From an uncultured Actinomycetota bacterium (GTDB lineage: Bacteria > Actinomycetota > Actinomycetes > Propionibacteriales > Nocardioidaceae), in contig CAWFRT010000005.1 of NCBI GenBank assembly GCA_963818365.1, positions 4,920 to 68,919 on the forward strand: a stretch of 64,000 bases of DNA, written 5' to 3'. The translations under genes were made by a program, and so were the position numbers. The notes below the pieces were generated by a model. It was given only the letters and a program-made list of their open reading frames with translations, ran no database searches and had not been told where the DNA came from. Positions 22,819 to 43,774 of this stretch are shown here, one piece after another; the first letter of the stretch is position 1, and every line of letters begins with the position of its first letter.

Positions 22819-23647
22819 GGGCGCGGCTTGCGCTGGCTTGATTCATCGACCCCGAGCGGAAACCCATCGGGTCTACTTCGACCCGATCAAAGCCCAAGAT
22901 GGTCGCGGTGATGGCCGGAAAGGCAGCCAGGGCTGGCACCAGGGCTAGGTCAATCTCGACCTTGGCCACCGCGCCGAGGTCGCGGACGCGGAGGTTGCGC
23001 ACCGGCAAACCTGCCGCCAGACAGGCCTGTCGTAGGTCGTGTTCGGCGCGTTCGACCCGGCCGAGTCGGGCGGGGGTGATGGTTAGGCCATAGGCAATTC
23101 GGCTCGAAAGACAAGCGGCGGCCGGTTTGTCGGCCGTGGTCAGCCCCCAATCCCGGGAGGCCTCGCGGACCTGCGCCTTGGTGAGCCCAGCGTCGCGAAG
23201 TGGCGTGATTGCCCCGCGCTGGGCGGCCGCCCTGATCCCTGGCCGAAATGGATCAACGGCGTCGTCGGCGTTCGTTCCGGTCGCGACTGCGTTGAGATTG
23301 AGCTGGGCGGCGAGCGGAGCGAGGATGTCGAGGAGCTCGGCCTTGCAGTGAAAGCATCGGTCGGGGCCGTTGGCGCGATAGCCCTCGCGTGACATTTCGT
23401 GCGTGGCCGGGGTCAGGTGACGCACACCGAGGCTGGCGGCGTACTTCGTGGCGTCAGCCAGCTCGGTGGCCGGGAGCGAGGAACTGACTGCAGTCGCCGC
23501 GACGACGAGGTCTGGGCCGAGGGCGCGGACGGCGGCGGCCAGGAGAAAGGCAGAATCTGCGCCGCCCGAGAATGCGATCAGGAGTGATCCGGACGCCCGG
23601 AGCCCCACGTCGAGCGTCGCCAACTGGTCGTGCAGAGCGGTCTTCAC
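22811..23647 (-). CDS. larE: LarE ATP-dependent sulfur transferase
   Basis: AFSGGADS PP-loop, RCFHCK, GTNADD, RPG, ACLSSR; GTGA overlap with larB. Confidence 0.92.
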   Translation of the reverse strand: MKTALHDQLATLDVGLRASGSLLIAFSGGADSAFLLAAAVRALGPDLVVAATAVSSSLPATELADATKYAASLGVRHLTPATHEMSREGYRANGPDRCFHCKAELLDILAPLAAQLNLNAVATGTNADDAVDPFRPGIRAAAQRGAITPLRDAGLTKAQVREASRDWGLTTADKPAAACLSSRIAYGLTITPARLGRVERAEHDLRQACLAAGLPVRNLRVRDLGAVAKVEIDLALVPALAAFPAITATILGFDRVEVDPMGFRSGSMNQASASRAHG

Positions 23648-24303
23648 GAAGCGTCCCGAGCATGCTTCAAGATGCGGATGGCCGCACACGCGGCGCCAAA
23701 GCCGTTGTCGATCCCGACCACGGTGATGCCCGGGCTGCAGGACGCGAGCATGCCAAGAAGTGCGGTGATTCCCTCAAGCCCAGAGCCATAACCCGTGCTG
23801 GTCGGGACCGCGATGATGGGCGCGCGGGTGAGGCCGGCAACCACGCTGGCGAGGGCTCCCTCCATGCCAGCCAGCACGATCACTACCTCGGCGGCGTCGA
23901 GGTGTGCTTGATGGGACAAGACTCGGTGGAGGCCTGCCACGCCAACATCAGCGATCAGTTCGGTGGCGAAGCCATAGGCCGCGAGGACGGCTTGAGTCTC
24001 GTGGGCAATCGGCAGATCAGCGGTGCCTGCGGTCAGCAGGGTGACATTGCCAGCTTGGCTGGCGGCTGGTCGCCAAGTCAGTGTCGCGAGCGAGCCGCCG
24101 ATGATGGTCGAGCCAGGGTTGATCGCCTGGGCGGCTTTGGATTGAGGCTCATCGGCCCGGGTGAGGAGGACCGGACCCGTGGTTTGTGCGAGTAACCCGC
24201 TGACCGCGGCGGCGCATTGTTCCGGAGTCTTGCCGGGAGCATAAACCGCCTCGGCAAGGTTCGTTCGTCCCTCGCGGGTCGGATCGAGGTGCAACTCGGG
24301 CAT
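23644..24303 (-). CDS. larB: LarB (PurE-like carboxylase/hydrolase)
   Basis: EAVYAPGKT, TAGTADLP, DVGVAGLHR, AGMEGAL, PTSTGYG, NGFGAA. Confidence 0.93.
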   Translation of the reverse strand: MPELHLDPTREGRTNLAEAVYAPGKTPEQCAAAVSGLLAQTTGPVLLTRADEPQSKAAQAINPGSTIIGGSLATLTWRPAASQAGNVTLLTAGTADLPIAHETQAVLAAYGFATELIADVGVAGLHRVLSHQAHLDAAEVVIVLAGMEGALASVVAGLTRAPIIAVPTSTGYGSGLEGITALLGMLASCSPGITVVGIDNGFGAACAAIRILKHARDAS

Positions 24304-24347
24304 GAGCCCATGGTGCCCTAGATCGATCGGCACGGGCCGGGCGAGCC

Positions 24348-24842
24348 TCACTGATCCGCGTCTAGTCGGACACAGTCGCCACACCGGCGTTCATGTCGCG
24401 CCGTCACCTGACAACACGTCGTACGCCGAAAAGTGGGGCCGAGCTCGCCAGTCCACGCGTCTGCCAAAGGTCTGCTCAGGAGCGCGTTGGTCGCGACGGC
24501 GAAGATGCGCGCGGTGTGTTCTGGGACTTCTTGGGCGAGGATCCCAGCACTCGAGGCGATCACCGAGGCCAGGTTTCCCCACAGAATTGGCTGCGTTAGG
24601 GTCCCGCGACTGGCTGTGGTCACGAGGTCGGTGAGCGGCCCGGAGACAGCCTTTTCGAGGGCCAGCGGATCTCCTGTTATGGCCGCTCGCAGAGCAGGCA
24701 GCACGATGGTGCCGGCTGCTTGGAGCGTGACGAGTGATTCGGCTGCCCCCTGTTTGATGTCGTCCACCGGCGTGTCGGTGAGCTGAGCGAGGGCGATGCG
24801 CTTGCGCGCGGCGCTGGCCAGGAAGGTCGCCAGATCGCTCAA
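24348..24842 (-). CDS. FhuF-like (2Fe-2S)-binding protein
   Basis: C-terminal RRTTCC-x10-CGDC motif. Confidence 0.72.
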   Translation of the reverse strand: MSDLATFLASAARKRIALAQLTDTPVDDIKQGAAESLVTLQAAGTIVLPALRAAITGDPLALEKAVSGPLTDLVTTASRGTLTQPILWGNLASVIASSAGILAQEVPEHTARIFAVATNALLSRPLADAWTGELGPTFRRTTCCQVTARHERRCGDCVRLDADQ

Positions 24843-25699: not shown

Positions 25700-25936
25700 T
25701 CAGTGACACGGGAAACCGAGGCTGTGGCGAGCGTCATGGAAGAGTTCGTGCAGCAGCAGCCCGTCACCGGTCACCGAGACGGAGCCCTGGTCGATACCAA
25801 GGAAGTAGATCGCGGCGATGCCCATCAAGAGCGCTCCCATGAACCACAGGCCGGTGATGGTGAGTGAGATCGGGCGGGCGCCGGCCCTGACGTTGAGTGG
25901 GCTGCTGGCTGCGGCTGACGGAGAGCTGGGGGGCAC
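25700..25936 (-). CDS. cbtB: CbtB putative cobalt transporter subunit
   Basis: One TM followed by HELFHDARHSLGFPCH. Confidence 0.92.
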   Translation of the reverse strand: MPPSSPSAAASSPLNVRAGARPISLTITGLWFMGALLMGIAAIYFLGIDQGSVSVTGDGLLLHELFHDARHSLGFPCH

Positions 25937-25976
25937 GTTTCACTCCTTCGAGGCGTAAGTATTATGAGAAACGTAC

Positions 25977-25992
25977 CTCTCCTATAGTAGAT
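25977..25992. promoter_or_regulatory. Candidate operator, copy 1 (cbtB/osmC-like divergence)
   Basis: CTCTCCTATAGTAGAT, 11/16 to GTTTACTATAGTAAAC. Confidence 0.45.
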
Positions 25993-26016
25993 TCGTCCAG
26001 AGCGGAGGAGGGGCTT

Positions 26017-26421
26017 GTGTCCGAACGAGTTGTCAGTGCGACGTGGTCGCCGGGACCGCTGAACACCACCGTGGAATTCGACACGCGGCAGACGATGCTT
26101 GTTGACGAGCCAGTCTCTGTGGGTGGGACGGGAATGGGCCCGCAGCCAACGGATCTCTTCATCGCATCGGTGGCGTCGTGCTTCACGTTGGCCTTGGTGT
26201 ACGCCGCGGGGAAGGCAGGCTTGTCGCTGACCTCAGTGGAGGTCGTGGTGACCGGCACCTATGCCGGACCACGTTTCTCCGAGATTGCCATCCATGCCGA
26301 GCTGGGCGGCGTACCCACTAGCGAGCGGGACGCCTTGGTCGCCTCCGCCGAGCGCTATTGCTATGTGACCAACACCCTCCGTCGCCCCCCAACGGTCACC
26401 ACCACCTCCACCTCCCGCTGA
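26017..26421 (+). CDS. OsmC-like family protein
   Basis: VDEPVSVGGTGMGPQPTDLFIASVASCF, ERYCYVTNTL. Confidence 0.85.
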   Translation: MSERVVSATWSPGPLNTTVEFDTRQTMLVDEPVSVGGTGMGPQPTDLFIASVASCFTLALVYAAGKAGLSLTSVEVVVTGTYAGPRFSEIAIHAELGGVPTSERDALVASAERYCYVTNTLRRPPTVTTTSTSR

Positions 26422-27195: not shown

Positions 27196-28179
27196 TCAAA
27201 CTAAGCCGGTGACCGTCTCCCGGTTGAGATCCAGCACCTCAACGCAATGACCCGCCGAAGCAAGGCCGATCAATCCCGAATCATCAACAACGCCGATCAC
27301 CTCGGCAGTGAGGTCACGCTGGTGGAACGCCTCGCGACAAGCGTCAACCTGTTCAACCGGGGTCGTCAGCAAGAACGCGTAGTTGGGGAAACAGGTCAGC
27401 CAGCGCGTCAACTCGACCCCATCCGGCACCGGCAAGGCGTCGAGGTCGACCCGGCAGCCATAGCGCCCGTGCTCCAAGAGCATCGCCAGGGAGCCCACGA
27501 GGCCGGCCATGCTGACGTCTTTGGCCGCCACCGCGGACCCCGACTCGGCGACCTCGGCCAACAATCGGATATCACCCGCGGCCTGCTCGGCGCGCTGGCG
27601 GAACCCCGCAAAGAACGGAAAGTCCGGCCGCATTTCGCCGACCAGCGAGCACGCCAAGATGACCGCGTGACCGGGCCGAACGTGAGTCATCGACAAGACC
27701 GCCTCCGCCCGGCCGAGCCCAAAGGCAGACAACGCAGGTGGACCGTCGGAGCGAGTCAGGTGCCCGCCGAGCAGCGGCACGTCATACAACTCGCAGCCGT
27801 AGCGAATTCCCCGCAAGATCTCACGGGCAGTCGTCTCGTTAGCCACGATGGTGTTCACGATGCCGGTCGGCCGCGCGCCCATCGCGGCCAGGTCGTTGAC
27901 GTTGGTCAGCACGGCCGCGATGCCGGCCCCGAACGGGTCGTGGGCGACAAAAGACGGCAACAGGGCCTCCCCGCAGGCCACCACAAACGAGTCATCAAAA
28001 GCAATTGCGGCACCGTCATCGCCGGGTCCGGTCAGCCAGTCGGATTTGTCGAAAACCTCCGAGACCAGGCCGATCGCCTGCTTGTCGCGGAGGCCGGCGT
28101 ACGCCGTCACGGTGGCAACTAGTTCGGTCAGTTGTGCGGCGCTGAGCCCGGGCCTCGAGGTGGTTCGGTCGCGTTGCAT
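27196..28179 (-). CDS. AIR synthase/selenophosphate synthetase-like protein (Sll0787/MSMEG_0567/NitF type); start uncertain
   Basis: GDDGAAI, TNVNDLAAMG, GGHL, KDVSMAG. Confidence 0.85.
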   Translation of the reverse strand: MQRDRTTSRPGLSAAQLTELVATVTAYAGLRDKQAIGLVSEVFDKSDWLTGPGDDGAAIAFDDSFVVACGEALLPSFVAHDPFGAGIAAVLTNVNDLAAMGARPTGIVNTIVANETTAREILRGIRYGCELYDVPLLGGHLTRSDGPPALSAFGLGRAEAVLSMTHVRPGHAVILACSLVGEMRPDFPFFAGFRQRAEQAAGDIRLLAEVAESGSAVAAKDVSMAGLVGSLAMLLEHGRYGCRVDLDALPVPDGVELTRWLTCFPNYAFLLTTPVEQVDACREAFHQRDLTAEVIGVVDDSGLIGLASAGHCVEVLDLNRETVTGLV

Positions 28180-28188
28180 ATAGGAAAC
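28173..28188. promoter_or_regulatory. Candidate operator, copy 2 (AIR synthase-like/comA divergence)
   Basis: GTTGCATATAGGAAAC, 12/16 to consensus. Confidence 0.5.
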
Positions 28189-28209
28189 GATAGATTTAGG
28201 ATCCGACAC

Positions 28210-28998
28210 ATGACAAGGCCAGGCTTCCTGTCACTCCCTGAGCGCGCTGAGAAGCCGCGTACGTCGGGTCTGACGCACGTCCTTGACAAGGGGCTCTCCG
28301 TCTCTGCCACCAGCGAATTGCTCCGGTCAGCGGGCAACTTTATTGACGTCTGGAAGTGGGGCTGGGGCACGGCTTACCTCGACCCCGACGTCCCTGTGAA
28401 ACTCAAGATGCTCGAAGGGGCGGGCATCAGCGCCTGCCTCGGCGGCACCATGCTGGAGATCTCGTGGCTGCAAGGCAAACACAAAGAGTGCCTGGACTGG
28501 GCGGCCGAGCTGGGTTTCCCGATGATCGAGGTGTCACGCGGAGTTGCGCCGATGACACTGGTGGAGAAGCGCGAACTGATTGAGTACGCCGTCTCGCACT
28601 TCACGGTGTTCAGCGAGGTCGGCAGCAAGGATCCGGCTTTCGACGTGGACCCGCAGGCATGGCGTGCGGAAGTCGTGTCTGACCTGGCAGCCGGCGCCTC
28701 GATGGTGGTCGCCGAGGGCCGCGAGAGTGGCACGGTGGGGCTGTATGACCCCGCGGGTGCGATTCGGCCGGACGTGGTGGAGGCAATCGCCGCGGTCGCG
28801 GGTCCGGATCGGATCTTCTTCGAGGCTCCGAAGAAGGACCAGCAGGCATGGTTCATTCGACACTTTGGGCCGAGCGTCAACCTGGCCAACATCGCCGCTG
28901 GCGAAGTGATGGGGCTGGAAGCCCTGCGCCTCGGCTTGCGTGCCGACACGGTCGCCCTAACCGGGGAAGGCGGGGCGCCAGGAGTTGGGGTGACATGA
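28210..28998 (+). CDS. comA: Phosphosulfolactate synthase (ComA family)
   Basis: GLTHVLDKG, DVWKWGWGT, LGGTMLE, IEVSRG, SEVGSKD, EGRESG, FEAP, LEALRLGLRADT. Confidence 0.93.
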   Translation: MTRPGFLSLPERAEKPRTSGLTHVLDKGLSVSATSELLRSAGNFIDVWKWGWGTAYLDPDVPVKLKMLEGAGISACLGGTMLEISWLQGKHKECLDWAAELGFPMIEVSRGVAPMTLVEKRELIEYAVSHFTVFSEVGSKDPAFDVDPQAWRAEVVSDLAAGASMVVAEGRESGTVGLYDPAGAIRPDVVEAIAAVAGPDRIFFEAPKKDQQAWFIRHFGPSVNLANIAAGEVMGLEALRLGLRADTVALTGEGGAPGVGVT

Positions 28999-29990
28999 GT
29001 GTGAACATCTATCCCGACAAATACCGCGGGGTTTCAGTGACCACTGTGGGCGGGGCCCTCGATCTTGAGTCCTTGCGGGCGTACTTCGTGGGAAAGCAGG
29101 CCTACTTCAAGACGAGGTACGCCGTCGTCAGCGGCACGGAAGGCGGTGTGCCTGCCACCGCCATCGTCCGCATTCACACCGCGGCGACCCCTTCAACTGG
29201 CGCCGTTCGGGGCGGACTATCTGGGGAGGGGGAGGGAGAAGGGGAGCTGTTTCTCCCGATCCTCGACGTCACCATGCTGGCTACCGCCGACGAAACGGTG
29301 GTCGTGGACGACCCCGAGATTGACACCGGTGTGCCCTCGGAGTTGGCCAGAGCCGCCCGTGAGCGAGCGCCGGGCTCTCGCGCGGTCGTCGTACACGGGC
29401 GCTATGAACACATCAGTTTCATCATCGACGCTCAACCCCTTCAAGTGCTCGTGCGCGAGGTGATTCCACCCGAACCCGCGAAACTCGTCGATCAGGCGGC
29501 CCGGGTCTTGGCCGTGCGCGAGGACTTGCCACCGATAGAGCTGATCCCCGATGTGGTGGATCTCCGCGAGGTGGCCGCGGCCCATCCAGCAGCGCACTAC
29601 CTCCTGCCTTGTCGAGGGTCGGGTTTCGTTCCTCAACAGTCCGAGCAGGGTGCCGCAGGCAACATCAAGATTGAATTCTTGGATGAACACCCAGCAGAAG
29701 GCGACTGGCTGATGCTGGGCTGCACGCGCTCGCAGCAGATCCACGGCGCGTTCTATGACCGCGATGCCCCCCAAGTGAGTTTCTGCCCCCTTGAACGGCC
29801 AGCCTCCCCCCTGTTGACGCTCACCAAATGTTGCCTCCAAGACGACGACATCGTGCGGGGAGACCACTCCGTGTCGGTGCCCTGGGGATCGTCGCTCGAG
29901 CGGGTGAGCGAGGCGCTCGAGGCGTTGGTGGCGCTGGCCAAAGATCAAGCCAGCACCGACCAACGGGTTCGCGCAGCGGAGGCGCTCTAG
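28995..29990 (+). CDS. Hypothetical Cys-containing protein translationally coupled to comA
   Basis: ATGA overlap; LLPCRGSG, LGCTRSQQIH, FCP, TKCCL. Confidence 0.75.
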   Translation: MSVNIYPDKYRGVSVTTVGGALDLESLRAYFVGKQAYFKTRYAVVSGTEGGVPATAIVRIHTAATPSTGAVRGGLSGEGEGEGELFLPILDVTMLATADETVVVDDPEIDTGVPSELARAARERAPGSRAVVVHGRYEHISFIIDAQPLQVLVREVIPPEPAKLVDQAARVLAVREDLPPIELIPDVVDLREVAAAHPAAHYLLPCRGSGFVPQQSEQGAAGNIKIEFLDEHPAEGDWLMLGCTRSQQIHGAFYDRDAPQVSFCPLERPASPLLTLTKCCLQDDDIVRGDHSVSVPWGSSLERVSEALEALVALAKDQASTDQRVRAAEAL

Positions 29991-31321
29991 TGGCGACCCG
30001 GATCAGCGACTCGGAGATGTATGCCCACCTCTGGACCGCCCCACAGTTGGACGGGTTGTTCGATGAGCGCGGTCGCCTGACTGTGTGGCTCACCATCTTG
30101 CGGGCGCTGGCCAAGGCGCAGGGCGAACTTGGGATCATCCCGACGCTGGCCGCCGGCGACATCGCCAAACTGACCGCCGCAGACCTCGACCTTGCGCTCG
30201 TCGCCGAGCACACCCGGCGTACGTCGCACTCGACGCTAGGTCTGATCCACGGGCTGCAAGCTGCGCTCCCAGAGGACGTGGCGCAGTATGCCTACTACGG
30301 CGCGACTGTCCAAGACGTCTCAGACACCTGGTTTGGCCTGGTGATGAGGGAGGTCGGTAGGCAGGCCAAGCTTGGGCTCGAGGAACTGCAACGGGGGCTG
30401 GTGTCGCTGAGCCAACAGCACCGCGACACGGTGATGCTGGGCCGCACCCATGGGCAGCCGGGCTCACCCATCACCTTCGGTTTCAAAGTGGCTTCGTGGG
30501 CTGATGAAGTGGGCCGCCATCTCGACCGGCTGGCTGAGGGACGCCCGCGCTGGGAGGTCGGCCAACTCGCTGGCGCGGTCGGTGTACTCGGCTTCTTTGG
30601 CGCACAAGGAACCGAGTTGCGGGCGCGGTTTTGTGCCGAGTTGGCACTCAACGATCCGGGCATTTCCTGGACGTCAAGCCGCGATCGGGTGGCTGAGTTT
30701 GGCGGCGTGCTAGCGATGATCTGCGCCACCTTGGCCCGAATGGGCAATGAGGTCTATGAACTCCAGCGCCCCGAGATCGGCGAATTGTCCGAGCCCCCCA
30801 TCGAGGGCGGCGTCGGCAGCATCACCATGCCGCATAAGCGCAATCCGGAGCGCAGTGAGCATCTGGCGACCCTGTCGAGGCTGGCTCGGGCGCAAGCCGG
30901 CGTCTTGCTGGAAGGCATGGAACATCAGCACGAGCGGGACGGCCGAGCCTGGAAGGCGGAGTGGATCGCGCTGCCGGAATTGTGTGAGTTAACGGTTGTC
31001 GCCGTGGGTCTGGCACAGCAACTGTTCCTTGACCTTGGCGTCCACCCCGATCGAATGGCCGCGAATCTCGCCGCCTCTGGGGTTGGGCCGCGGTCTGAGC
31101 AGTTGCTGGCGGCGCTGTCTGCGCGGATCGGGAAGCATCGCGCCCAAGCCTTGTTGCAGGAAGCCCTGGCCCAGGGTGCCGTCGAGGCCGACCTCGAGGA
31201 ACTGCTGATGAAGCACGGGGTAGCCGGCGAAGAGGTAGGCCAGTTGATGGCGACCTATCAGACCGGCGTCGCCGGGCAGATGGTCGACACCGTCCGCAGC
31301 AAGGGGCGCCGCAGTGATTGA
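29990..31321 (+). CDS. Adenylosuccinate-lyase-like protein (XcbD-like), non-canonical signature
   Basis: GATVQD, MLGRTHGQ, GSITMPHKRNP, HERD. Confidence 0.85.
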   Translation: MATRISDSEMYAHLWTAPQLDGLFDERGRLTVWLTILRALAKAQGELGIIPTLAAGDIAKLTAADLDLALVAEHTRRTSHSTLGLIHGLQAALPEDVAQYAYYGATVQDVSDTWFGLVMREVGRQAKLGLEELQRGLVSLSQQHRDTVMLGRTHGQPGSPITFGFKVASWADEVGRHLDRLAEGRPRWEVGQLAGAVGVLGFFGAQGTELRARFCAELALNDPGISWTSSRDRVAEFGGVLAMICATLARMGNEVYELQRPEIGELSEPPIEGGVGSITMPHKRNPERSEHLATLSRLARAQAGVLLEGMEHQHERDGRAWKAEWIALPELCELTVVAVGLAQQLFLDLGVHPDRMAANLAASGVGPRSEQLLAALSARIGKHRAQALLQEALAQGAVEADLEELLMKHGVAGEEVGQLMATYQTGVAGQMVDTVRSKGRRSD

Positions 31322-32339
31322 CGCGACCGACAAGGTGGCCAGCGCGAGATTGGCGCGGTTCGAGTTGCTCGCCGGGCCGACACCGCTCCAACGGTTGACC
31401 GCGATCGAGGCGTTGTGTGGGACCGGTCCACTCCTCGTCAAGCGCGACGATCTCACCGGGTTTGGAGTCGCGGGCAACAAGGCTAGGACGCTGGAATATC
31501 TCATCGGTGATGCCCTGGCTGGTGGCGCCGACGTGGTCGTCACCGGTGGTCGACCCGGCTCCAACTTCTGCTCGGCGACCGCGGCCGCCTGTGCCAAAGC
31601 TGGGCTTGAAGCCCACCTGGTGATGGCGCTGTCGCCCGGCGCCGTGCCGAGTTCGAACGTGAACTTGTCGGTCGCTTTCGGCGCGCAGATTGCCCCGGTT
31701 TCACCGACTTGTGACCTAGACGAAGCCATCGCGTCGTACGCCGACAGGCTGAGGTCGGCGGGCCGAAAGGTGTACGCCGTGCCGAGAGGCGGGGCCACGC
31801 CCATCGGTGCCTTGGGTTATGCCGACGCAGCCCACGAGTTGGCCGAGCAACTGTTCGGTGAGCCGGATCAGCCGATGCAGGTCGTGGTCGCAGTGGGGAC
31901 CGGCGGGACGGTCGCTGGGCTGCTGACTGGCCGCGGAGAATTGGGCGCGTCATGGGCGCTGGCCGGGGTTTGCGTGAGTTCGCCGGCGGCTGAAATGGCC
32001 GGGCGGATCACCCGAATAGCGGCGGGCTGCGCGGCGCTACGCGGCGCCCGTCCAGGGGTTGGTCTGACCCTGACCGATGCGCCTGGGGAGCACGGCGTAC
32101 TCACCAACGCGCAGCGTGATCTCGCCGACCTGGCGCTGCGCCACGAGGGGTTGTTGCTCGACAGCACCTACACGGCTAAGTCGTTTGAGCGCGCGGTCGA
32201 ACTGGCTCAGCGGACCACCCGGCCGACGGTTTTCTGGCACACGGGCGGCCTGCTGGGAGCGTTGGCACGCATCTCGACAGGCTCGACCAACCCCGAGGGA
32301 TCCAACCTCGGCGACTCGACCAACCTGGAGGACCGATGA
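31314..32339 (+). CDS. PLP enzyme of the D-cysteine desulfhydrase/ACC deaminase family (XcbE-like)
   Basis: TPLQ, KRDDLTG, GNKARTLEY, SN, GTGGT, LDSTYTAK, FWHTGG. Confidence 0.9.
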   Translation: MIDATDKVASARLARFELLAGPTPLQRLTAIEALCGTGPLLVKRDDLTGFGVAGNKARTLEYLIGDALAGGADVVVTGGRPGSNFCSATAAACAKAGLEAHLVMALSPGAVPSSNVNLSVAFGAQIAPVSPTCDLDEAIASYADRLRSAGRKVYAVPRGGATPIGALGYADAAHELAEQLFGEPDQPMQVVVAVGTGGTVAGLLTGRGELGASWALAGVCVSSPAAEMAGRITRIAAGCAALRGARPGVGLTLTDAPGEHGVLTNAQRDLADLALRHEGLLLDSTYTAKSFERAVELAQRTTRPTVFWHTGGLLGALARISTGSTNPEGSNLGDSTNLEDR

Positions 32340-33856
32340 CTAAGCGCGTGCGGGTGGCGGGGTCGGTGACCTCCAAGGCGGCACCGGAGTTGATCGCGTC
32401 AGGTTTTCAGATGGAGAACGACGACGCGCCCTACCTCCACGATGGCCTTAACCTGGCCGACATCGCGCACGTTTTGGACCTGTCACGCCGAGGGCTTTTG
32501 CCGGCGGACGCCGAACGGTCGTTGCTTGAGATCCTGCTGGAGGTCTGCGAGATCGACGCGGAGGACTTCCCTTACGATCCCCACCTGGGGGAGCCTTACA
32601 ACTCACGAGAGCACTACTTCGTGGAGGCGCTCGGGGATGCTGCTGGTTGGCTCCATGCGGGTCGCCCACGTCGGGAGGCGGCCAGGATTGCCCTGCGCCT
32701 GCGGCTTCGACGGCAACTCGTTGACCTAGTCCTCGACGTCGTCGCCTTTGGCACTCAGGTGTGTGACCTAGCGACCGAACATGCCGACACCCTGATGGCC
32801 GATCAGACGTATCTTCAACAGGCTCAGCCCTCCACCTTTGGGCACTATTTGCTCACTTTTGCCCACCCGGCCCTGCGCGACGCCGAGCGGCTCCTGGACG
32901 AGCTGAAACAGATCAATGCCAGTCCTGGCGGGGCTGGGTGCGTCAATGGCACACGTCTCCAAGACGATCGCGGCTACCTCGCAAACCTGCTCGGCTTTGA
33001 CTCCGTGATCACCCACACTCGCGATGCGATGTGGCGGGTCGATGACCTGATCGCCTTGCTTGCGACCACCACCTCGGTGGTTTCTAATCTCAGCAAGTTG
33101 GCCGAAGACTTGGAGATCTTTTCCAGCGCCGAGTTTGACTTCGTCGATCTCGACGACTCGTTCAGCCGCTCAAGTGTGCTGATGCCCAACAAGCGAAACC
33201 CCTATGCGTTGTCGATCGTTCGCGGCGCCTCCGGCGTGTTGATCGGCCGGCTCTCCGGCTTTCTGGCGGTCACGAAGAGTCCGTCGGCGCGTTCGGACAA
33301 CTTCATTTATGCGTACGGCGAGGTGCCCCGCGCGCTGGACTTAGCCGAGCGGGTGACAGCGCTGATGGCCGGTGTGGTGCGGACCCTGGTGGTGCATCCA
33401 GACCGAATGTTGGCGGAATTGGACCGCGGCTATGCCCAATCGACAGATCTTGCAGAGTTCTTCACGGTGAAACGCGGCGTGGACTATCGCACGGCCTATT
33501 ACGTCGTCGGAGACGCCGTACGACAAGCGAGTCGGGAGGGGATTCCCGGACGTTTGATCGGCGCCGAGATCATCAACCGGGCGGCGGCGGCTCGCACGGG
33601 AACACCGTGGGATGTCACCGACGAAGAACTGGCCGAGGTGTTGAAGCCGGAGTCGATCGTTGCCTCGCGAACCGCCGAGGGTGGCGCGGCCAAAGCTGTC
33701 GTGCTGGCCGGGGTCGAAGCCACCCGTGCTCGACTCAGCCTGATCGCGGAGCAGGCCGACCAGCGGTTGCGTGACTTCGACGCTGTCGAAGTTTCATTGC
33801 TGGCGCAGGCCCGCAGCGTTGTTGCTACCCCGTCAGTGAAATCAGAGGAGAAGTGA
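32336..33856 (+). CDS. Argininosuccinate-lyase-like protein (XcbC-like), non-canonical catalytic motifs
   Basis: TYLQQAQP (Tyr where THxQ has His), SSVLMPNKRNP, TDLAE. Confidence 0.85.
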   Translation: MTKRVRVAGSVTSKAAPELIASGFQMENDDAPYLHDGLNLADIAHVLDLSRRGLLPADAERSLLEILLEVCEIDAEDFPYDPHLGEPYNSREHYFVEALGDAAGWLHAGRPRREAARIALRLRLRRQLVDLVLDVVAFGTQVCDLATEHADTLMADQTYLQQAQPSTFGHYLLTFAHPALRDAERLLDELKQINASPGGAGCVNGTRLQDDRGYLANLLGFDSVITHTRDAMWRVDDLIALLATTTSVVSNLSKLAEDLEIFSSAEFDFVDLDDSFSRSSVLMPNKRNPYALSIVRGASGVLIGRLSGFLAVTKSPSARSDNFIYAYGEVPRALDLAERVTALMAGVVRTLVVHPDRMLAELDRGYAQSTDLAEFFTVKRGVDYRTAYYVVGDAVRQASREGIPGRLIGAEIINRAAAARTGTPWDVTDEELAEVLKPESIVASRTAEGGAAKAVVLAGVEATRARLSLIAEQADQRLRDFDAVEVSLLAQARSVVATPSVKSEEK

Positions 33857-35277
33857 TGTCGAGTCCTGTCGTCGAACTGCCCACCGAAGTGGAAGTTGTC
33901 AACATTGGGTTGCCCCTGTTTGGGGAGGCGGTGGCTGCCCAGGGTCGGCCCGTGGTGCAGGTGGATTGGCGGCCGCCAGCGGATGGAAACCTTGAGGTGG
34001 TGCGTGCGCTGACCCGCACGTTTGGCGTGCACGAGGGCGTCATCGAAGCAGCAAACGCGGAAGTGTTTCGTCGCCTCGACACCGGGGTCGCGATGCTGAC
34101 CGGGGTGGCGACGGCAGCCGATGTGGTGCCTGACATCGAGGGTCAAACGATTCTGCACTGCGGTCCCGCCATCGAATGGGTGGACGTGTGCGATCCGCTG
34201 CGTCGGTCGATGCGGGCCGCGGTGGTGGCTGAAGGTTGGGCTGCTGAAGTGTCCGACGCTGATCGGTTGTTGGCCGCTGGGGACGTCCGGCTGGAGCCGG
34301 CAAATCTGCATCAGATGTGTGTGCCGATGGCCACCGCGATCGGGCCTTCCTCGCCAGTCTGGGTGGTGGAAAACCGAGACGGCAACACAGTCGCCTTCTC
34401 GCCGATCAATCAAGGGCCGGGCGAGGTGCCCTGGTTTGGTCGGGAGACTCCGGAAGCGATTGAGCGGCTGCGGTTTCTACGCGACGTGGCCGGGCCGTTG
34501 CTGGGTCGAGTGGTCACGGGGACCGGTCCGATCGACCTGTTTGCGTTGGCCACGCAGGGCATTGCCATGGGCGACGACATCCACATGCGCACCCAGGCGA
34601 CCACCAATCTGCTGATCCGCAACCTCTTGCCGGGCATCGTCGAGCACGGGGGTGCGCGGGGCGTTGAGTTCGCGTCGTACCTCTCTGGGAACCACCTGTT
34701 CTTCCTCAATCTGGCGATGGCAGCGGCCAAGTCGCTGACCCTGTGGGCAGAGGAGGTGCCTCATTCGAGCATCGTCACGACCATGTCGCGCAACGGAACG
34801 GGTTTCGGGATCCGGTTGGCGGGCAACGACGAGTGGTTCCTCACCGAGGCACCGCCGGTGAGCGATGCGCTTTACTACTCCGGCCAGTCCGCTGAGACAG
34901 CAGCCAAGGACATCGGCGACAGTGCTGTTTTGGAGTTGGTGGGCTTGGGTGGTCCAGCTGCGGCCGGCTCACCCGCCGTCGCGGCGTTCCTTGGCGGGAC
35001 AATGGCAGATGCGAGAGCGGCCACGGAATCCATGATCGAGATCTGCCGCGGGCCGAGTTCGCGCTTCAAACTGCCGATCATGGACTTTCGGGGTACGCCG
35101 GTGGGAGTCGACGTACGTTATGTCGCTGAAACTGGCATCACCCCCAAGGTCAACACTGGCGTGCTCCACATCTCCGATGGGTCTGGCCAGATCGGTGCCG
35201 GTGTGGCTACGGCGCCGGTCAGTTGTTTTGTCGAAGCCCTCCTCGACCTCGACCGCCGACTCACCGCCGAGAAGTAG
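33853..35277 (+). CDS. DUF1116 (YlbE/AllG-like) protein with an N-terminal FdrA-tail-like segment
   Basis: ILHCGP, MGDDIHMR, NHLFFLN, MSRNG, DIGDSA, INT-like VNTG; N-terminal VNIGL...VDWRPPADG. Confidence 0.88.
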   Translation: MMSSPVVELPTEVEVVNIGLPLFGEAVAAQGRPVVQVDWRPPADGNLEVVRALTRTFGVHEGVIEAANAEVFRRLDTGVAMLTGVATAADVVPDIEGQTILHCGPAIEWVDVCDPLRRSMRAAVVAEGWAAEVSDADRLLAAGDVRLEPANLHQMCVPMATAIGPSSPVWVVENRDGNTVAFSPINQGPGEVPWFGRETPEAIERLRFLRDVAGPLLGRVVTGTGPIDLFALATQGIAMGDDIHMRTQATTNLLIRNLLPGIVEHGGARGVEFASYLSGNHLFFLNLAMAAAKSLTLWAEEVPHSSIVTTMSRNGTGFGIRLAGNDEWFLTEAPPVSDALYYSGQSAETAAKDIGDSAVLELVGLGGPAAAGSPAVAAFLGGTMADARAATESMIEICRGPSSRFKLPIMDFRGTPVGVDVRYVAETGITPKVNTGVLHISDGSGQIGAGVATAPVSCFVEALLDLDRRLTAEK

Positions 35278-35283
35278 AACAAG

Positions 35284-35322
35284 GTGGAGGAAATAGCGCA
35301 CCTGGTGCGCCAATTCCTCCAC
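35284..35322. repeat. ~40-bp palindrome, family P
   Basis: GTGGAGGAAATAGCGCAC-CTG-GTGCGCCAATTCCTCCAC. Confidence 0.85.
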
Positions 35323-35343: not shown

Positions 35344-36033
35344 GTGGCGGTGAACACGTCCTTCCGGTCCGGGGTGAGGACGGGGGCACCGTTCGGAATT
35401 GTCTCCTTCGTCCTCTCCGCCTCCTTCGGAGTGTTGGCTGTGCAGGCTGGGTTCTCGTGGTTCCAGGTGCTCGTGATGTCGGCCCTGGTGTTCGCAGGTT
35501 CGGCACAGTTCGCCATGCTTTCGATCCTCGCGGGCGGCGGCAGTGGAGGGGCGGCCGTCGGGGCCTCAGGGTTGATGAACAGCCGATTCCTGGCGATGGG
35601 GATCGCCTTGGCACCCTCGCTCCCGGGTCGGTGGTGGTCGCGGGCCGCACAGGGCCAGGCGGTGGTGGACGCCTCGTGGGCGATCGCCAACCGCGGCGAT
35701 GGCACCTTCGACCGCTGGCTGCTCTTCGGCACCACGCTCCCGCAGTACGTCGGGTGGGTGGTCGGCGGGACACTCGGCGCGCTGCTCGGGGATGGGCTCG
35801 GCGACACGGATCGGCTTGGTTTTGACGCCATCTATCCCACCTTCTTTCTGGCTCTGCTGATTGCCGAACTCCGGGATGCGCGGTCGAGAGGGGTCGCCCT
35901 GGCCGGTGCCGCCATCGCGTTGGCGCTGGTGCCATTCACACCACCCGGCATACCGATCCTCGCCGCGAGCGTGGCGGCTATCGTCGGCCTCTGGTCCCCG
36001 CCCGCGACAGTGCCCGAGATTGGGGAGGCGTAG
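35344..36033 (+). CDS. AzlC-family membrane protein
   Basis: MSALVFAGSAQFA, MNSRF, VVDASWA. Confidence 0.9.
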   Translation: MAVNTSFRSGVRTGAPFGIVSFVLSASFGVLAVQAGFSWFQVLVMSALVFAGSAQFAMLSILAGGGSGGAAVGASGLMNSRFLAMGIALAPSLPGRWWSRAAQGQAVVDASWAIANRGDGTFDRWLLFGTTLPQYVGWVVGGTLGALLGDGLGDTDRLGFDAIYPTFFLALLIAELRDARSRGVALAGAAIALALVPFTPPGIPILAASVAAIVGLWSPPATVPEIGEA

Positions 36034-36035
36034 CC

Positions 36036-36356
36036 GTGATGTGGGGTCCTGCCCACCTCTGGTGGCCAATCTTGGGTTGCATCGTGCTGACCGCGCTGAT
36101 TAAGGCCGCGGGCCCGATTGCCCTGGGAGGTCGGGAGTTGCCACGGGCGCTCACAGGTGTGGTTAGCCTGATGGCCCCCGCATTGATTGCCGCCTTGGTT
36201 GTTACTGCCGCTTTTGCCGATGGACAACGGCTGGGCCTGGGCGCACACACTGTGGGGCTCGCGGTTGCCGCAGTGTTCCTCTGGCGTGGCAAGTCTGTTG
36301 TGCTGGCCGTTTTCGTGGCGGTTGCCGTCACCGCTGCCTTGCGCGCCGCCTTGTGA
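36036..36356 (+). CDS. AzlD-family membrane protein
   Basis: LIKAAGP, APALIAALV; follows AzlC. Confidence 0.85.
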   Translation: MMWGPAHLWWPILGCIVLTALIKAAGPIALGGRELPRALTGVVSLMAPALIAALVVTAAFADGQRLGLGAHTVGLAVAAVFLWRGKSVVLAVFVAVAVTAALRAAL

Positions 36357-36991
36357 AGGCGCGAGTGTTCGCCGTGTTCGGCCGGGCGATCTATGTCGCG
36401 AACGGCGACTCAGTTCGAGTGCTCGTCGACCACCGCTCGCCGCGTGGACCGCTACATCTACGAGTGCGGAAACTGCCATCGCTCCAGGTTGAGGACGAGG
36501 TTCTCCTCACCGCCGGGCTGGCGGAATTCCCGGGTGGGTGCGTGAGGATCGAGGATCCATGGGTGGGTGAGCAGCCCTTGCGGGGGCTCGCCAGGCTCGA
36601 CCCACGGCAGTCAGACATCGCCGAACTGGCTGTGCGCGTCGGCGGGCGAGGGCCCGGACTGACTCCGCAGGGGGACGACGTTTTGGCCGGCGTACTTCTT
36701 GCCCGTTGGGGCGTCTGCGACGACACCGAACGGCGCGAGCTCCTGGCCATCGCGCTGAGCGTGGACACCAACCGGATTTCTCGCGCCTTCCTGGCGGCGG
36801 CGGCCGGGGGCCAATGCATCGAGCCAGCCCACGACTTGTTGGTTGCGCTGTTGGTCGGCGATGAACCAGCGGCCGGCAGGGCCCAGGCCGAGCTCACGTC
36901 GTACGGCGCGACCTCCGGTGTCGCGCTGGCGCGGGGGATTCGCGCCGAGGTTGCCAACGATGGGTTGCACTTCTTGACGGTGCTCGGGTGA
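36353..36991 (+). CDS. DUF2877 (YlbF/AllH-like) protein
   Basis: GRGPGLTPQGDDVLAG, TNRIS, GATSG. Confidence 0.85.
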   Translation: MKARVFAVFGRAIYVANGDSVRVLVDHRSPRGPLHLRVRKLPSLQVEDEVLLTAGLAEFPGGCVRIEDPWVGEQPLRGLARLDPRQSDIAELAVRVGGRGPGLTPQGDDVLAGVLLARWGVCDDTERRELLAIALSVDTNRISRAFLAAAAGGQCIEPAHDLLVALLVGDEPAAGRAQAELTSYGATSGVALARGIRAEVANDGLHFLTVLG

Positions 36992-37227: not shown

Positions 37228-37241
37228 CTACCGGACCGGCG

Positions 37242-37868
37242 CTAGCTGAGGCTGATGTGGACGAGCTCGGCCACTGCGCGCCCGGAATTGGTCCAGGTGG
37301 CGGAGTGATCAGTGAGGAAATGCAGTGAATCGCCACGCTTAAGAGCGAAGTCACGGCCGCCGATTGTGGCGTGCACCGCTCCGGCAACCACGTGCACCAA
37401 CGACTCACCACCACGTGCGGGCGCATCCTCCAACACGGCGCCAGCGGGCAACTTGATCGTCGTACCTCTGGCGCGGAACCGAGCCGGTGGTCCGGAGATG
37501 AGTACGACGTCGGCGCCGCCACGATCCACCGGCTCGCCGGTGCCAGACGCCACATGCCAGACGTCATGGGGATCCTCGGGCTCTTCGCCAATGAGGTGGC
37601 TGATCGGACGCTTGAAGACGGTGGCCAGTTTGAGCAGAGTCGTGATCGTCGGCACCATGTCGCCGCGCTCGATCTTGTGGATCGAAGCGGCGCTCACTTC
37701 GGCAATCGCACTCATCTGTTGGAGCGACAACCCCAAGCCGGCCCGCATGTCGGCCAGCCGCGGACCAATCCCGGCTACGACCTCCTCAACGCTCAGGGCG
37801 CCCGTGTCAGTCGCGTTTTCCGGCGTGACTGAAGTGCTGGCGGCGTTTGCAGCACTGCCTCTAGGCAT
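37242..37868 (-). CDS. XRE-family HTH regulator with C-terminal cupin domain
   Basis: LSLQQMSAIAEVSAASIHKIERG...PTITTL; GGESLVHVVAG, GDSLHF. Confidence 0.92.
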   Translation of the reverse strand: MPRGSAANAASTSVTPENATDTGALSVEEVVAGIGPRLADMRAGLGLSLQQMSAIAEVSAASIHKIERGDMVPTITTLLKLATVFKRPISHLIGEEPEDPHDVWHVASGTGEPVDRGGADVVLISGPPARFRARGTTIKLPAGAVLEDAPARGGESLVHVVAGAVHATIGGRDFALKRGDSLHFLTDHSATWTNSGRAVAELVHISLS

Positions 37869-37882
37869 TTGCCTGTCCTCTC

Positions 37883-37914
37883 TTGACGTCCCACTCGCGT
37901 TTACTATGATAGAC
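37883..37914 (+). promoter_or_regulatory. Promoter (TTGACG-16-TATGAT) overlapped by candidate operator copy 3
   Basis: GTTTACTATGATAGAC at 37899-37914, 13/16 to consensus. Confidence 0.6.
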
Positions 37915-37984
37915 GACAACCTCACATAATGGACACGCCATCGCTGACGTGTTCGCCGGTCTCGTCAGGAGTGTCCATCAAGTT

Positions 37985-39319
37985 ATGAAGACAGTAGTCA
38001 TCGGTGGCGGTTCGGCAGGCACGGGCGCAGCCGGAGGGGTGAAAGCGGCCAATCCCGAAAACGAAGTCGTTGTTTACACCGACTTCCAGGACATCGCCTA
38101 CAGCCCTTGCGGCATCCCATTTGTGCACGGCAAGGAGATCGAGAGTTTCTCCAAGCTCTTCTTGGCCACCAAAGAGGACTACGTCAAAGCCGGCATCGAC
38201 ATCCACTACAACACCACCGTCACCAGCATTGATGTGAAGGCAAAGACCATCGAGGTCGAGGGCGAAGGAACGGTCTCGTGGGATCGGCTGGTCATCGCGA
38301 GCGGCTTCAAGTACGCCAACCCCGGCGTTCCGGGCGGGGATCTCGACGGTCTCTACTACATGAAGAACATCCGCGAAGCCGAGATCTGGGACAAGCGCCT
38401 CGACACGGTCAAGAAGGCCGTCGTGATCGAGGCCGGACCGCTGGGTGCGGAGATGGTGAGCGCCCTTGCCCACCGCGGGATCGAGACTCATGTGGTCGAC
38501 CCTCACCCGTGGGCGTTGAGTGAGATCGCCGACCCCGACATCGTGGCTCCCGTCGAACAGGCCTGGCGAGACCAGGGCGTGCACCTGCACTTCAACACCA
38601 AACTCGAGGCTTTCCTCGGCAGCGGAACCGTGACCGGGGTGCGTACGTCGGAGGGTGATATCGACTGCGACATGGTTGTCGTGGCGACCCACAAGACCCC
38701 TGACACCAAGTTGGCGACGGCGGCCGGACTCAAGATCGGCTCGACCGGTGGGATCATCGTCGGCAACGACATGTCCACGTCTGCACCCGGGGTGTGGGCA
38801 GCCGGCGACTGCATCGAAGTGGTCCTGGGGCAGACCAAGATTCCGATCCAGGGGCTCACGGGCTCGCATGCCTATTCGCAGGGGAAGGTCGCTGGCTTCA
38901 ATGCTGGCGGTGGGGCTGGCGGGAAGGTCTATTCGCCGGTCTACGTCCCCTGGGGAATGCTCGCGGCCAACCAGATGGTGGGTGGGGTTGCCCTCGGCGA
39001 AACGCTGGCCGCCAGTCTCGGCATCCCACACATTGTGGGCAGTGCCCAGGGGATCTCGCGGGCTCGCTACTACCCCGGCGTACAACCGGTGAAGATCAAA
39101 CTCCTCGCCGACCCGGCAACTCACAAGTTGATCGGGGCCCAGATGGTCGGCGGCGAAGGCATCAAGGAGCGAGCAGACTTCCTGGCGATGTGTGTGCGCA
39201 AGGGCATCACCCTCGAGGACCTAGCGACGATGGAGAACGTCTATTCGCCGGCGATCGGCGCCCTTAACGAACCCATCTCCGTGGCCGCGCAAAACACTCT
39301 CGCGGCGTTGAAGAAGTGA
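37985..39319 (+). CDS. FAD-dependent pyridine nucleotide-disulfide oxidoreductase, CoA-disulfide reductase/NADH oxidase type
   Basis: IGGGSAG, AYSPCGIPF single redox Cys, WAAGDC, GAQMVG, YSP dimerization tail. Confidence 0.88.
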   Translation: MKTVVIGGGSAGTGAAGGVKAANPENEVVVYTDFQDIAYSPCGIPFVHGKEIESFSKLFLATKEDYVKAGIDIHYNTTVTSIDVKAKTIEVEGEGTVSWDRLVIASGFKYANPGVPGGDLDGLYYMKNIREAEIWDKRLDTVKKAVVIEAGPLGAEMVSALAHRGIETHVVDPHPWALSEIADPDIVAPVEQAWRDQGVHLHFNTKLEAFLGSGTVTGVRTSEGDIDCDMVVVATHKTPDTKLATAAGLKIGSTGGIIVGNDMSTSAPGVWAAGDCIEVVLGQTKIPIQGLTGSHAYSQGKVAGFNAGGGAGGKVYSPVYVPWGMLAANQMVGGVALGETLAASLGIPHIVGSAQGISRARYYPGVQPVKIKLLADPATHKLIGAQMVGGEGIKERADFLAMCVRKGITLEDLATMENVYSPAIGALNEPISVAAQNTLAALKK

Positions 39320-39739: not shown

Positions 39740-40225
39740 ATGCCAAAGACAGTCAACTGGGGACCCCCAGCGGTCGGTGAGTCCCTTTTCAACGACGAGA
39801 AGTTGTTTGAGGACATCAAGGCCAACGAAGGCGAAAAGGCCTTCATCTTCATTCACACGGTGCCTTACGAGGGCTCGGTCGCCCTGGTGAACCTGCTGAC
39901 CTCGACGCGACTTCGTCGCAAGGGTTTCGAAGTCAACATCATCCTTTATGGCCCTGGCGTGCTCCTTGCTTCGGGCACCCGCGGCTTCCCGACCATTGGC
40001 GCCGAGGCGTTCCCAGGTCACATGGCGATCAACAAGCAACTGGGTGTGCTGATGGACGAAGGCGCAACGATCTATGCCTGCCGTTTCGCCATGGGTGCTC
40101 TCTACGGCATGGGTGAGGATCAATTGATCCCCGGGGTGAAGGCATTCCACCCGCTCGACGTACTCGACTCGGCGCTCACCGCCTGGCGTGCCGGCGCCTT
40201 CCAGATGAACACCTGGACGGTCTGA
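39740..40225 (+). CDS. MSMEG_0572/Sll0783 (NitB, DsrE-like) family protein
   Basis: FIHTVPYEGSVALVNLLT, LYGPGV, AFPGH, IYACRFAMGALYG. Confidence 0.88.
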   Translation: MPKTVNWGPPAVGESLFNDEKLFEDIKANEGEKAFIFIHTVPYEGSVALVNLLTSTRLRRKGFEVNIILYGPGVLLASGTRGFPTIGAEAFPGHMAINKQLGVLMDEGATIYACRFAMGALYGMGEDQLIPGVKAFHPLDVLDSALTAWRAGAFQMNTWTV

Positions 40226-43696: not shown

Positions 43697-43717
43697 CTCT
43701 GGTGGATAACAACTAAC

Positions 43718-43754: not shown

Positions 43755-43774
43755 CTTAAGTGTCGACCGCCTCC

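Follow-up and report, generated by a model that had tools for sequence, protein, structure and literature searches.

A stretch of 64,000 nucleotides from contig CAWFRT010000005.1 of an uncultured actinomycete of the family Nocardioidaceae (GenBank assembly GCA_963818365.1; "the window" below) carries, at positions 28210–33856 of the + strand, five genes in the order xcbB-A-D-E-C, which probably constitute a complete bacterial-type operon for making coenzyme M (CoM) from phosphoenolpyruvate (PEP), sulfite and cysteine. According to a comparative genomics study of 2024, methanogenic archaea and aerobic bacteria that use alkenes are the only organisms known to have CoM biosynthesis genes (PMC11507031). 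The XcbA–XcbE pathway has been reconstituted for Xanthobacter autotrophicus Py2, with XcbA as the [2Fe-2S] protein of the last, reductive step (PMC9457059). Here a seemingly complete CoM pathway occurs in a genome without alkene genes and is linked, in dozens of species of two phyla, to genes of thiol redox and of nitrile and carbamoyl metabolism. The best joint explanation, which we regard as rather probable, combines the CoM operon with CoM as the thiol of a sulfur-redox and carbon–nitrogen (C–N) module. The further proposal, that a conserved supercluster akin to the Nit1C/gpr nitrogen-starvation cluster has CoM as its own dedicated small thiol, is put forward tentatively, as a possibility that may well prove wrong.

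The coordinates of the five genes are exact, and each gene overlaps the next at its stop and start codons (Table 1), with ATGA at the comA/xcbA junction, TAGTG at xcbA/xcbD, an 8-nt overlap at xcbD/xcbE and ATGA at xcbE/xcbC. A sixth gene, allG-like, is coupled to xcbC in the same way (GTGA). The first-pass annotation, made by a model from the letters of the sequence, had described a coupled series of comA, hypothetical, PurB-like, pyridoxal phosphate (PLP) enzyme and ArgH-like genes, and all five are found there on the + strand. It had also recognized four Xcb families of CoM synthesis, XcbB, D, E and C. These four are present, and the count has to be raised to five, since the "hypothetical" gene is, by its sequence, that of XcbA, which would catalyze the final step, and with it the bacterial CoM route would be complete. 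The B-A-D-E-C order matches that of Nocardioides sp. JS614 and Mycolicibacterium chubuense NBB4, and because it recurs in about 80 other species it is far beyond chance. The comA product is 50% identical to ComA of JS614 and 37% to XcbB of Xanthobacter; it scores 236 bits against the archaeal equivalog TIGR03849, below the cut-off of 280. For the product of the PurB-like gene the XcbD model leads all other models by 180 bits. Exact-sequence look-ups with the XcbA of the window and with the protein P0046 gave no match.

A lyase phylogeny, which the first-pass annotation had proposed as a check, places the XcbC-like and XcbD-like proteins in Xcb clades and not with housekeeping PurB and ArgH, and the derived motifs of their catalytic loops agree with this placement. 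In maximum-likelihood trees both lyases fall inside the Xcb groups, and the genome's own ArgH and PurB, which are encoded on another contig and have the canonical loops GSSIMPQKKNP (ArgH) and GSSAMPHKMNT (PurB), lie outside on long branches. The operon proteins were aligned with the Xcb proteins of Xanthobacter and JS614, 13 relatives and the genome's ArgH and PurB. The xcbC product shares the motifs R(S/A)SxLMPQKRNPY, DxTYLQxAQP and GRxRREA with the characterized XcbC of Xanthobacter and with that of JS614, the second of them having a tyrosine in place of the catalytic histidine of ArgH. At these sites the genome's ArgH reads GSSIMPQKKNP, GRTHLQHAQP and GRSRNDQ, unlike the xcbC product. The xcbD product likewise shares GSITMPHKRNPE, GRTHGQPGxP and GATVQDxxDTW with XcbD of Xanthobacter and JS614, and the genome's PurB differs.

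XcbA aligns over its full length with the characterized Xanthobacter protein, and five cysteines (C206, C243, C264, C279 and C280) are invariant. Its AlphaFold2 model has a mean predicted local distance difference test (pLDDT) score of 90.4. A Foldseek search with this model found no solved relative (best match E 0.096), and the fold therefore gives no clue to mechanism. In the xcbE product the PLP-binding lysine K56 is invariant in 76 homologues and the place of the gene between xcbD and xcbC is conserved. The assignment of this gene is weak; it rests on the fold, the invariant PLP lysine and the conserved gene position.

The known consumers of CoM were sought in the whole genome, the assembly of which is 98.98% complete. 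With tblastn none of XecA, EtnE, EtnA, EtnB and EtnC found a match at E≤1e-5, a protein search of the genome was equally without a match for epoxyalkane:CoM transferase (XecA/EtnE), and the hydroxylase domain PF02332 of soluble di-iron monooxygenases (SDIMO) gave no match in the genome. For the two-cysteine disulfide oxidoreductase (DSOR) carboxylase 2-ketopropyl-CoM carboxylase (2-KPCC), the best match in the genome is 25.7% identical and is a generic DSOR flavoprotein; the flavoprotein of the locus itself belongs to the single-cysteine family of CoA-disulfide reductases (CoADR) and NADH oxidases (Nox), not to the two-cysteine 2-KPCC type. The remark of the first-pass annotation that no alkene monooxygenase, epoxyalkane:CoM transferase or 2-KPCC lies in the window thus holds for the genome at large, and the search for etnE/xecA and 2-KPCC that it had suggested revealed no alkene cluster elsewhere by which the operon could be explained. 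Judged by gene content, the product of the operon would not serve epoxide metabolism in this organism. Of 17 genomes that share the cluster, 7 are devoid of any EtnE-like match; in those with a match, the best full-length ones do not exceed 35% identity and are encoded away from the cluster. Six of the 17 have no SDIMO. The sole match to PF01717 (Meth_synt_2) in the genome (39.5 bits, partial) is a MetE-like open reading frame (ORF) of 328 amino acids at C3:992652-993638. It has HxC and C-terminal cysteine motifs and belongs to a distant family of the zinc thiol-alkyltransferase type. As a candidate for a cryptic CoM transferase it was rejected, its similarity to XecA having an E value of 0.057, with no NCBIfam match and with no counterpart in three supercluster genomes.

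The operon is not peculiar to this organism. A pattern scan of genomes, one for each species, detected a relative of XcbA in at least 550 of them, mostly soil Actinomycetota, and at least one alphaproteobacterial plasmid has one as well. The protein databases contain 1382 clusters at 90% identity among 8000 scored candidates, and 219 clusters at 50% identity, each with E≤1e-10. All window genes and the alkene-pathway proteins were used to search 95 loci; the synteny sample consisted of the 80 best matches and four loci from an even sample, and the shares given here refer to 47 loci, each from a different species and flanked by 8 kb or more on both sides of xcbA. The core genes are nearly constant (xcbD and xcbC 100%, comA 98%, xcbE 96%), and every one of the 47 loci (100%) has at least one Nit1C/gpr marker beside xcb. 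The most frequent neighbors are the genes for an OsmC-family protein (91%), the Sll0783 family (83%) and the CoADR-like flavoprotein (81%), followed by a helix-turn-helix (HTH) regulator (68%), allG (64%), the gene resembling aminoimidazole ribonucleotide synthetase (AIRS; 55%) and a GNAT gene (53%). Nitrile hydratase beta is found in 34% and larB, larE and larC in about 33%, while the MSMEG_0565-type glycosyltransferase, the FdrA-like protein and carbamate kinase occur within 10 kb in 32–43%. EtnE, XecA and EtnC are near xcb in 0%. Variant loci have an extra AhpD-family protein or an amidase. Matches on plasmids of Variovorax and Streptomyces rimosus were set aside, since each proved to be a lone XcbD-like paralogue without further xcb genes.

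Carriers in culture include many species of Pseudonocardia, Actinomycetospora (A. succinea), Nocardioides guangzhouensis, Planosporangium (P. flavigriseum), Streptomyces chiangmaiensis and Methylocystis iwaonis, and Pseudonocardia endophytica repeats the layout of the window gene for gene. In an independent set of 300 genomes, sampled evenly across the phylum, 8 were XcbA-positive, all from one family of another class, and the four of these that were fetched all have the same supercluster (4/4). The first-pass annotation had tied a new role of CoM to nitrile/amide chemistry or redox buffering. That tie is strengthened, at the level of gene neighborhoods, by synteny in two phyla with Nit1C/gpr, nitrile hydratase/nitrilase, OsmC, DsrE-fold and CoADR-like genes. 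In trees with added sequences the alkene-type Xcb proteins of Xanthobacter, JS614 and NBB4 form a single clade, which appears to be nested among the Nit1C-linked sequences; such a nested position suggests that the alkene oxidizers recruited an existing CoM pathway.

Comparison with the known systems shows what is shared and what is new. The xcbABCDE genes of Xanthobacter Py2 (pXAUT01) encode the same five families with the same XcbC/XcbD loop motifs and the same five XcbA cysteines, at 35–46% identity. Their order is A-B-C-D-E, in contrast to B-A-D-E-C here, where the operon does not adjoin alkene monooxygenase or xecABCDE genes, and the Xanthobacter Xcb proteins form a long branch apparently nested among the Nit1C-linked sequences. 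The ethene/vinyl-chloride oxidizers Nocardioides sp. JS614 (pNOCA01) and M. chubuense NBB4 have the gene order found here and a nearby CoADR-family flavoprotein with the same redox cysteine. Their operons are flanked by etnEABCD and by genes for CoA-transferases, a short-chain dehydrogenase/reductase and MEDS regulators, whereas the flanks here consist of OsmC, the AIRS-like gene, allG, Sll0783 and nitrile hydratase, in a genome without etnE or etnABC.

The other part of the supercluster resembles Nit1C (nitBCDEFGH of Pseudomonas; sll0783–sll0787 of Synechocystis) and gpr (MSMEG_0565–0572), of which the NitB, NitD, NitE, NitF and glycosyltransferase types are present here too. Nitrile hydratase stands in the place of the nitrilase and the CoADR-like flavoprotein in the place of the MSMEG_0569/NitH type. 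To these the locus adds xcbBADEC, OsmC, an AllFGH-like set, carbamate kinase and larBCE, the whole being spread over about 28 kb and several operons. Of these five marker proteins of Nit1C/gpr, the NitB/Sll0783, radical-SAM, GNAT and glycosyltransferase proteins score above the family cut-offs and the AIRS-like protein below. No Nit6803-family nitrilase is encoded in the window; a single nitrilase-like gene, with 38% identity, exists on a different contig. The gpr cluster of Mycobacterium smegmatis, the description of which includes no xcb genes, responds to nitrogen starvation with a more than 100-fold induction, makes the cells resistant to peroxide and raises the NADPH/NADP ratio (PMC6039565). 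The two parts are directly joined on plasmid pSS37A-Re-1 of the alphaproteobacterium M. iwaonis, where OsmC-comA-xcbA-D-E-C lies beside a canonical Nit1C cluster with Nit6803 nitrilase, radical-SAM, GNAT, sll0787 AIRS, Pnap_2097, FdrA-like and MSMEG_0565 glycosyltransferase genes. XcbC and XcbD of this plasmid are 57% and 52% identical to those of the window. Unlike the locus here, that of Methylocystis has no nitrile hydratase or CoADR-like gene in the 25 kb examined; it has been annotated gene by gene and not described as a unit.

What the three most constant neighbors of the CoM genes (OsmC, Sll0783 and the flavoprotein) have in common is that each is a protein of the thiol or sulfane-sulfur kind. 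By sequence the Sll0783-family protein matches nothing in Pfam or the PDB; its AlphaFold2 model (pLDDT 83.9) matches DsrE 3pnx in Foldseek with E 1.8e-7 and probability 1.0, as well as DsrEFH, TusBCD and YchN with probability 1.0, and its Cys114 is invariant. Both catalytic cysteines of the OsmC protein (C95 and C155) are invariant in 73 homologues. Cys54 of the flavoprotein (YSPCG) is kept in 95% of 60 homologues, and the redox cysteine is invariant in the flavoproteins adjoining xcb in JS614, NBB4 and Xanthobacter. The best PDB relatives of the flavoprotein are NADH oxidase 6ruz, CoADRs and the CoA-persulfide reductase 8a56.

In the proposed pathway, drawn up throughout by orthology to that of Xanthobacter, XcbB would join sulfite and PEP to phosphosulfolactate; XcbC would eliminate phosphate to yield sulfoacrylate; XcbD would add cysteine to give 3-sulfopropionyl-cysteine; and XcbE with PLP would cleave and decarboxylate this product to sulfoethanethioaldehyde, which the Fe-S protein XcbA would reduce to 2-mercaptoethanesulfonate. 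The single-cysteine CoADR-like flavoprotein may then keep CoM reduced or reduce CoM persulfide, the DsrE-fold Sll0783 protein may carry sulfane sulfur or a mixed disulfide, and the OsmC peroxiredoxin may use CoM as reductant against hydroperoxides. Nitrile hydratase/nitrilase, the AllFGH-like transcarbamoylase and carbamate kinase would form the C–N salvage branch of the same system.

Two readings would leave the supercluster without a CoM role of its own, and both are very improbable. If the lyases and the PLP enzyme were ordinary paralogues of PurB, ArgH and D-cysteine desulfhydrase, ComA would make only sulfolactate and no CoM would be formed. Such a reading draws on the scores of XcbC, XcbD and XcbE, all below the curated NCBIfam cut-offs, on the tie of XcbE with CuyA and on the ArgH-like protein being just above the argH cut-off (282.3 vs 279.5). 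It is opposed by the presence in the genome of separate canonical ArgH and PurB proteins with intact GSSxMP loops, by the operon lyases, which are without the catalytic histidine of ArgH and have all derived motifs of the characterized XcbC and XcbD, and by XcbA, which is above its cut-off and has so far no role outside CoM synthesis. If instead the operon served ordinary CoM-dependent epoxide or alkene metabolism, the genes concerned would have to be encoded elsewhere or be missing from the assembly. The same xcb gene order in JS614, at 39–51% identity, and the position of the host near Nocardioides, the genus of JS614, as indicated by an ArgH 74–76% identical to that of Nocardioides species, are compatible with such a history. 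Against it stand the absence of epoxyalkane:CoM transferase, EtnABC or any other SDIMO hydroxylase from this nearly complete genome, the same absence in 6–7 of the 17 other cluster genomes and the fact that none of the 47 loci (0/47) has such genes nearby.

The remaining alternatives keep CoM, or the Xcb product, in the supercluster and give it another task. The compound may be a covalent carrier in C–N chemistry and not a redox buffer, which we consider unlikely. The sulfur of CoM would capture cyanide or a cyano group in disulfide or persulfide form, the handling of which would fall to the flavoprotein and the DsrE-fold protein; nitrile hydratase would turn S-cyano-CoM into S-carbamoyl-CoM; the FdrA/AllG/AllH-like enzyme would move the carbamoyl group to phosphate; and carbamate kinase would yield ATP, ammonia and CO2, with CoM freed. 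The translational coupling of allG to xcbC fits this cycle, as do the recurrence of FdrA, AllG, AllH, carbamate kinase and nitrile hydratase/nitrilase in the supercluster, with an amidase in one variant, the match of nitrile hydratase alpha to thiocyanate hydrolase gamma (188.7 bits) and the action of CoM as a carrier thiol in every known role. In Escherichia coli AllFGH is the oxamic transcarbamylase and YbcF the catabolic carbamate kinase (PMC11326118, PMC9843812), and Nit1C is required for cyanide assimilation by Pseudomonas (PMC7815647, PMC11049912). However, only about 34% of loci have nitrile hydratase, and 32–38% FdrA and carbamate kinase, at a distance of up to 10 kb from xcb, compared with 81–91% for OsmC, Sll0783 and the flavoprotein, no candidate enzyme for forming the S-cyano adduct was identified, and the scheme is entirely inferential. 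Also improbable is that the Xcb product is a sulfonate-thiol unit built into a larger metabolite, such as a glycosylated and acetylated thiol like mycothiol or bacillithiol, assembled by the MSMEG_0565 glycosyltransferase, GNAT, AIR-synthase-like and radical-SAM enzymes. The glycosyltransferase is of the GT4 family, with MshA (106 bits) and BshA (51 bits) as next-best matches; the locus also encodes a GNAT protein (with MshD-like logic), an ATP-dependent AIRS-like enzyme and a flavoprotein resembling disulfide reductases, and one or more of these Nit1C/gpr genes occur in every well-flanked locus. But the glycosyltransferase, radical-SAM and GNAT genes lie within 10 kb in only 30–53% of loci, there is no evident ligase to attach CoM, and the M. 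smegmatis and Pseudomonas clusters, as published, list no xcb genes, so that these enzymes need no CoM (by the descriptions of the clusters, not their sequences).

The preferred combination of a CoM operon with CoM as the thiol of a sulfur-redox and C–N module has to be set against several observations that weigh on the other side. The scores of XcbC, XcbD and XcbE do not reach the narrow "exception" cut-offs of NCBI, and each Xcb tree is rooted by one very long outgroup branch. For XcbE its own model (197.4 bits) is hardly ahead of CuyA (196.6 bits), both far below their cut-offs, and the tree of this fast-evolving protein does not set it apart from a paralogue elsewhere in the genome. Since neither score nor tree distinguishes XcbE from CuyA or D-cysteine desulfhydrase, the pathway could end in a thiol other than CoM. 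The flavoprotein was rejected as a specific orthologue of those in the alkene clusters: at about 29% identity it stands no nearer to them than to a Thermus NADH oxidase, so that the relationship does not imply a common substrate. The second of its dinucleotide motifs has degenerated (EAGPLG, not GGGYIG; EASPLG in P. endophytica), and its electron donor may, by this motif, differ from the usual NAD(P)H. Several supercluster genomes, that of the closest relative included, have an intact mycothiol ligase MshC. The simple GlnR-box pattern GTnAC-n6-GnAAC has two matches against 1.3 expected, with none in the relevant intergenic regions, and so gives no evidence that GlnR controls the operons. The idea that CoM replaces mycothiol was discarded as a general rule, for three small cluster-bearing genomes are without MshC but four others have it. 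In the genome studied here the mshC model matches in three pieces and two reading frames (C3:445639-446775), either a pseudogene or the result of assembly indels.

The genes around the operon are listed in Table 1. Upstream, cbtA lies with larB, larE and larC. Lar_N, the domain of LarA, is absent from 6 of 7 genomes with lar genes by the supercluster, this genome included, and a client enzyme of the nickel-pincer cofactor may belong to the supercluster. The true start of the OsmC gene is probably downstream of 25897. An oxamic-transcarbamylase-like set of FdrA, DUF1116 (AllG), DUF2877 (AllH) and carbamate kinase is present in full, over three operons; the FdrA-like protein scores 385 bits against NF004760, below the cut-off of 433. 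Residues 8–54 of the AllG-like protein, at its N-terminus, align with positions 506–552 at the C-terminal end of the FdrA model of the E. coli type, and the FdrA-like protein of the locus, 518 amino acids long, ends at about position 496 of that model. For azlC there was no tblastn match in the first 95 related loci. A small ORF of about 85 amino acids with no family match lies between the flavoprotein and Sll0783 genes (39330-39590, + strand) and is conserved in P. endophytica (L016:19236-19496) and in a third locus (L096:19804-20061).

Table 1. Features of the window, with positions, strand and supporting matches
Feature	Position	Strand	Function and evidence
larC, larE, larB (nickel-pincer cofactor)	21607..24384	-	NCBIfam equivalogs above cut-off
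OsmC-family peroxiredoxin-like gene	25897..26421	+	Pfam OsmC 67.5 bits
sll0787-family AIR-synthase-like gene (NitF type), divergent from comA	27196..28180	-	TIGR04049 251.7 bits, cut-off 321.3
comA/xcbB	28210..28998	+	(2R)-phospho-3-sulfolactate synthase (PEP + sulfite); Pfam ComA 267.9 bits, 1e-79, full-length, cut-off 25.2
xcbA-family gene (DUF7714)	28995..29990	+	Putative [2Fe-2S] thioaldehyde reductase forming CoM; NF052538 254.6 bits, above cut-off 150; no competing model
xcbD-like gene, aspartase/fumarase superfamily	29990..31321	+	3-sulfopropionyl-cysteine synthase by homology; NF052536 563.6 bits (cut-off 600) vs purB 223
xcbE-like PLP enzyme (D-cysteine desulfhydrase/1-aminocyclopropane-1-carboxylate deaminase fold)	31314..32339	+	PALP 122 bits; NF052537 197.4, cut-off 450
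xcbC-like gene, aspartase/fumarase superfamily	32336..33856	+	Phosphosulfolactate to sulfoacrylate by homology; NF052535 413.7 bits (cut-off 575) vs argH 282
allG-like gene (DUF1116), sixth coupled gene	33853..35277	+	Pfam AllG 221.9 bits; start overlaps xcbC stop
40-bp perfect palindrome GGTGGAGGAAATAGCGCACCTGGTGCGCCAATTCCTCCAC	35283..35322	.	Hairpin 6 bp past allG stop, closes operon
azlC, azlD-like, allH-like (DUF2877)	35344..36991	+	Pfam AzlC 110, AllH 68.3 bits
HTH (XRE) regulator	37242..37925	-	HTH_3/HTH_31 and PuuR-like matches; P. endophytica homologue adds a cupin domain
CoA-disulfide-reductase/NADH-oxidase-family flavoprotein, one redox Cys	37985..39319	+	TIGR03385 255.8 bits, below cut-off
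MSMEG_0572/Sll0783 (NitB) family, DsrE/TusD fold	39740..40225	+	TIGR04044 197.8 bits, above cut-off 109.85
Nitrile hydratase beta, alpha, accessory	40415..42047	+	TIGR03888 173, TIGR01323 306.6, TIGR03889 69 bits, all above cut-off
MSMEG_0565-family glycosyltransferase, FdrA/AllF-like gene, carbamate kinase	43775..47480	-	TIGR04047 343.7 (above cut-off), NF004760 385, arcC 346.7
MSMEG_0568 radical-SAM (NitD type) and MSMEG_0567/Sll0786 GNAT (NitE type)	47963..49581	+	TIGR04043 382.9, TIGR04045 96.6, both above cut-off

Only about 30 AT-rich bases (28181-28209) separate comA from the divergent AIRS-like gene. A TAGGAT -10-like box lies 8 nt upstream of the comA ATG at 28210, and the AIRS-like gene, with a likely start at ATG 28180, has a promoter-like TTGTCA-18-TATCGT at 28216-28187. 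The xcb operon and allG appear to be transcribed from a very short AT-rich divergent region that is shared with the AIRS-like gene. The -10-like boxes of the pair sit as for leaderless transcripts on both strands. The palindrome that closes the operon has three copies in all (35283-35322, 42056-42095 and 43717-43756), located at ends of operons in the supercluster, with 0 expected by chance; it may be a terminator resembling repetitive extragenic palindromic (REP) elements or a shared operator. A 34-bp tandem repeat with 4.8 copies and 96% matches lies at 37065-37228, between the allH-like and HTH regulator genes. Rfam shows no riboswitch in the window.

The Xcb pathway itself is known. What is new with respect to the literature searched is its occurrence without alkene metabolism, its joining to Nit1C/gpr and the breadth of its distribution; searches for xcb/DUF7714, for phosphosulfolactate synthase with nitrile hydratase and for sulfoacrylate returned no description of a linkage between xcb and Nit1C/gpr. 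In the most far-reaching version, a long shot at present, CoM would belong, as dedicated thiol, to a widespread system of stress response and nitrogen scavenging from which the alkene oxidizers borrowed the pathway, the cyano/carbamoyl carrier cycle being the boldest form of the idea. As carriers of the supercluster exist in culture, the role of CoM can be tested directly. If CoM is made by these organisms, its biological range and roles would be much wider than thought, and the long-unexplained Nit1C/gpr cluster, with its part in cyanide assimilation and in peroxide resistance under nitrogen starvation, would gain a concrete cofactor.

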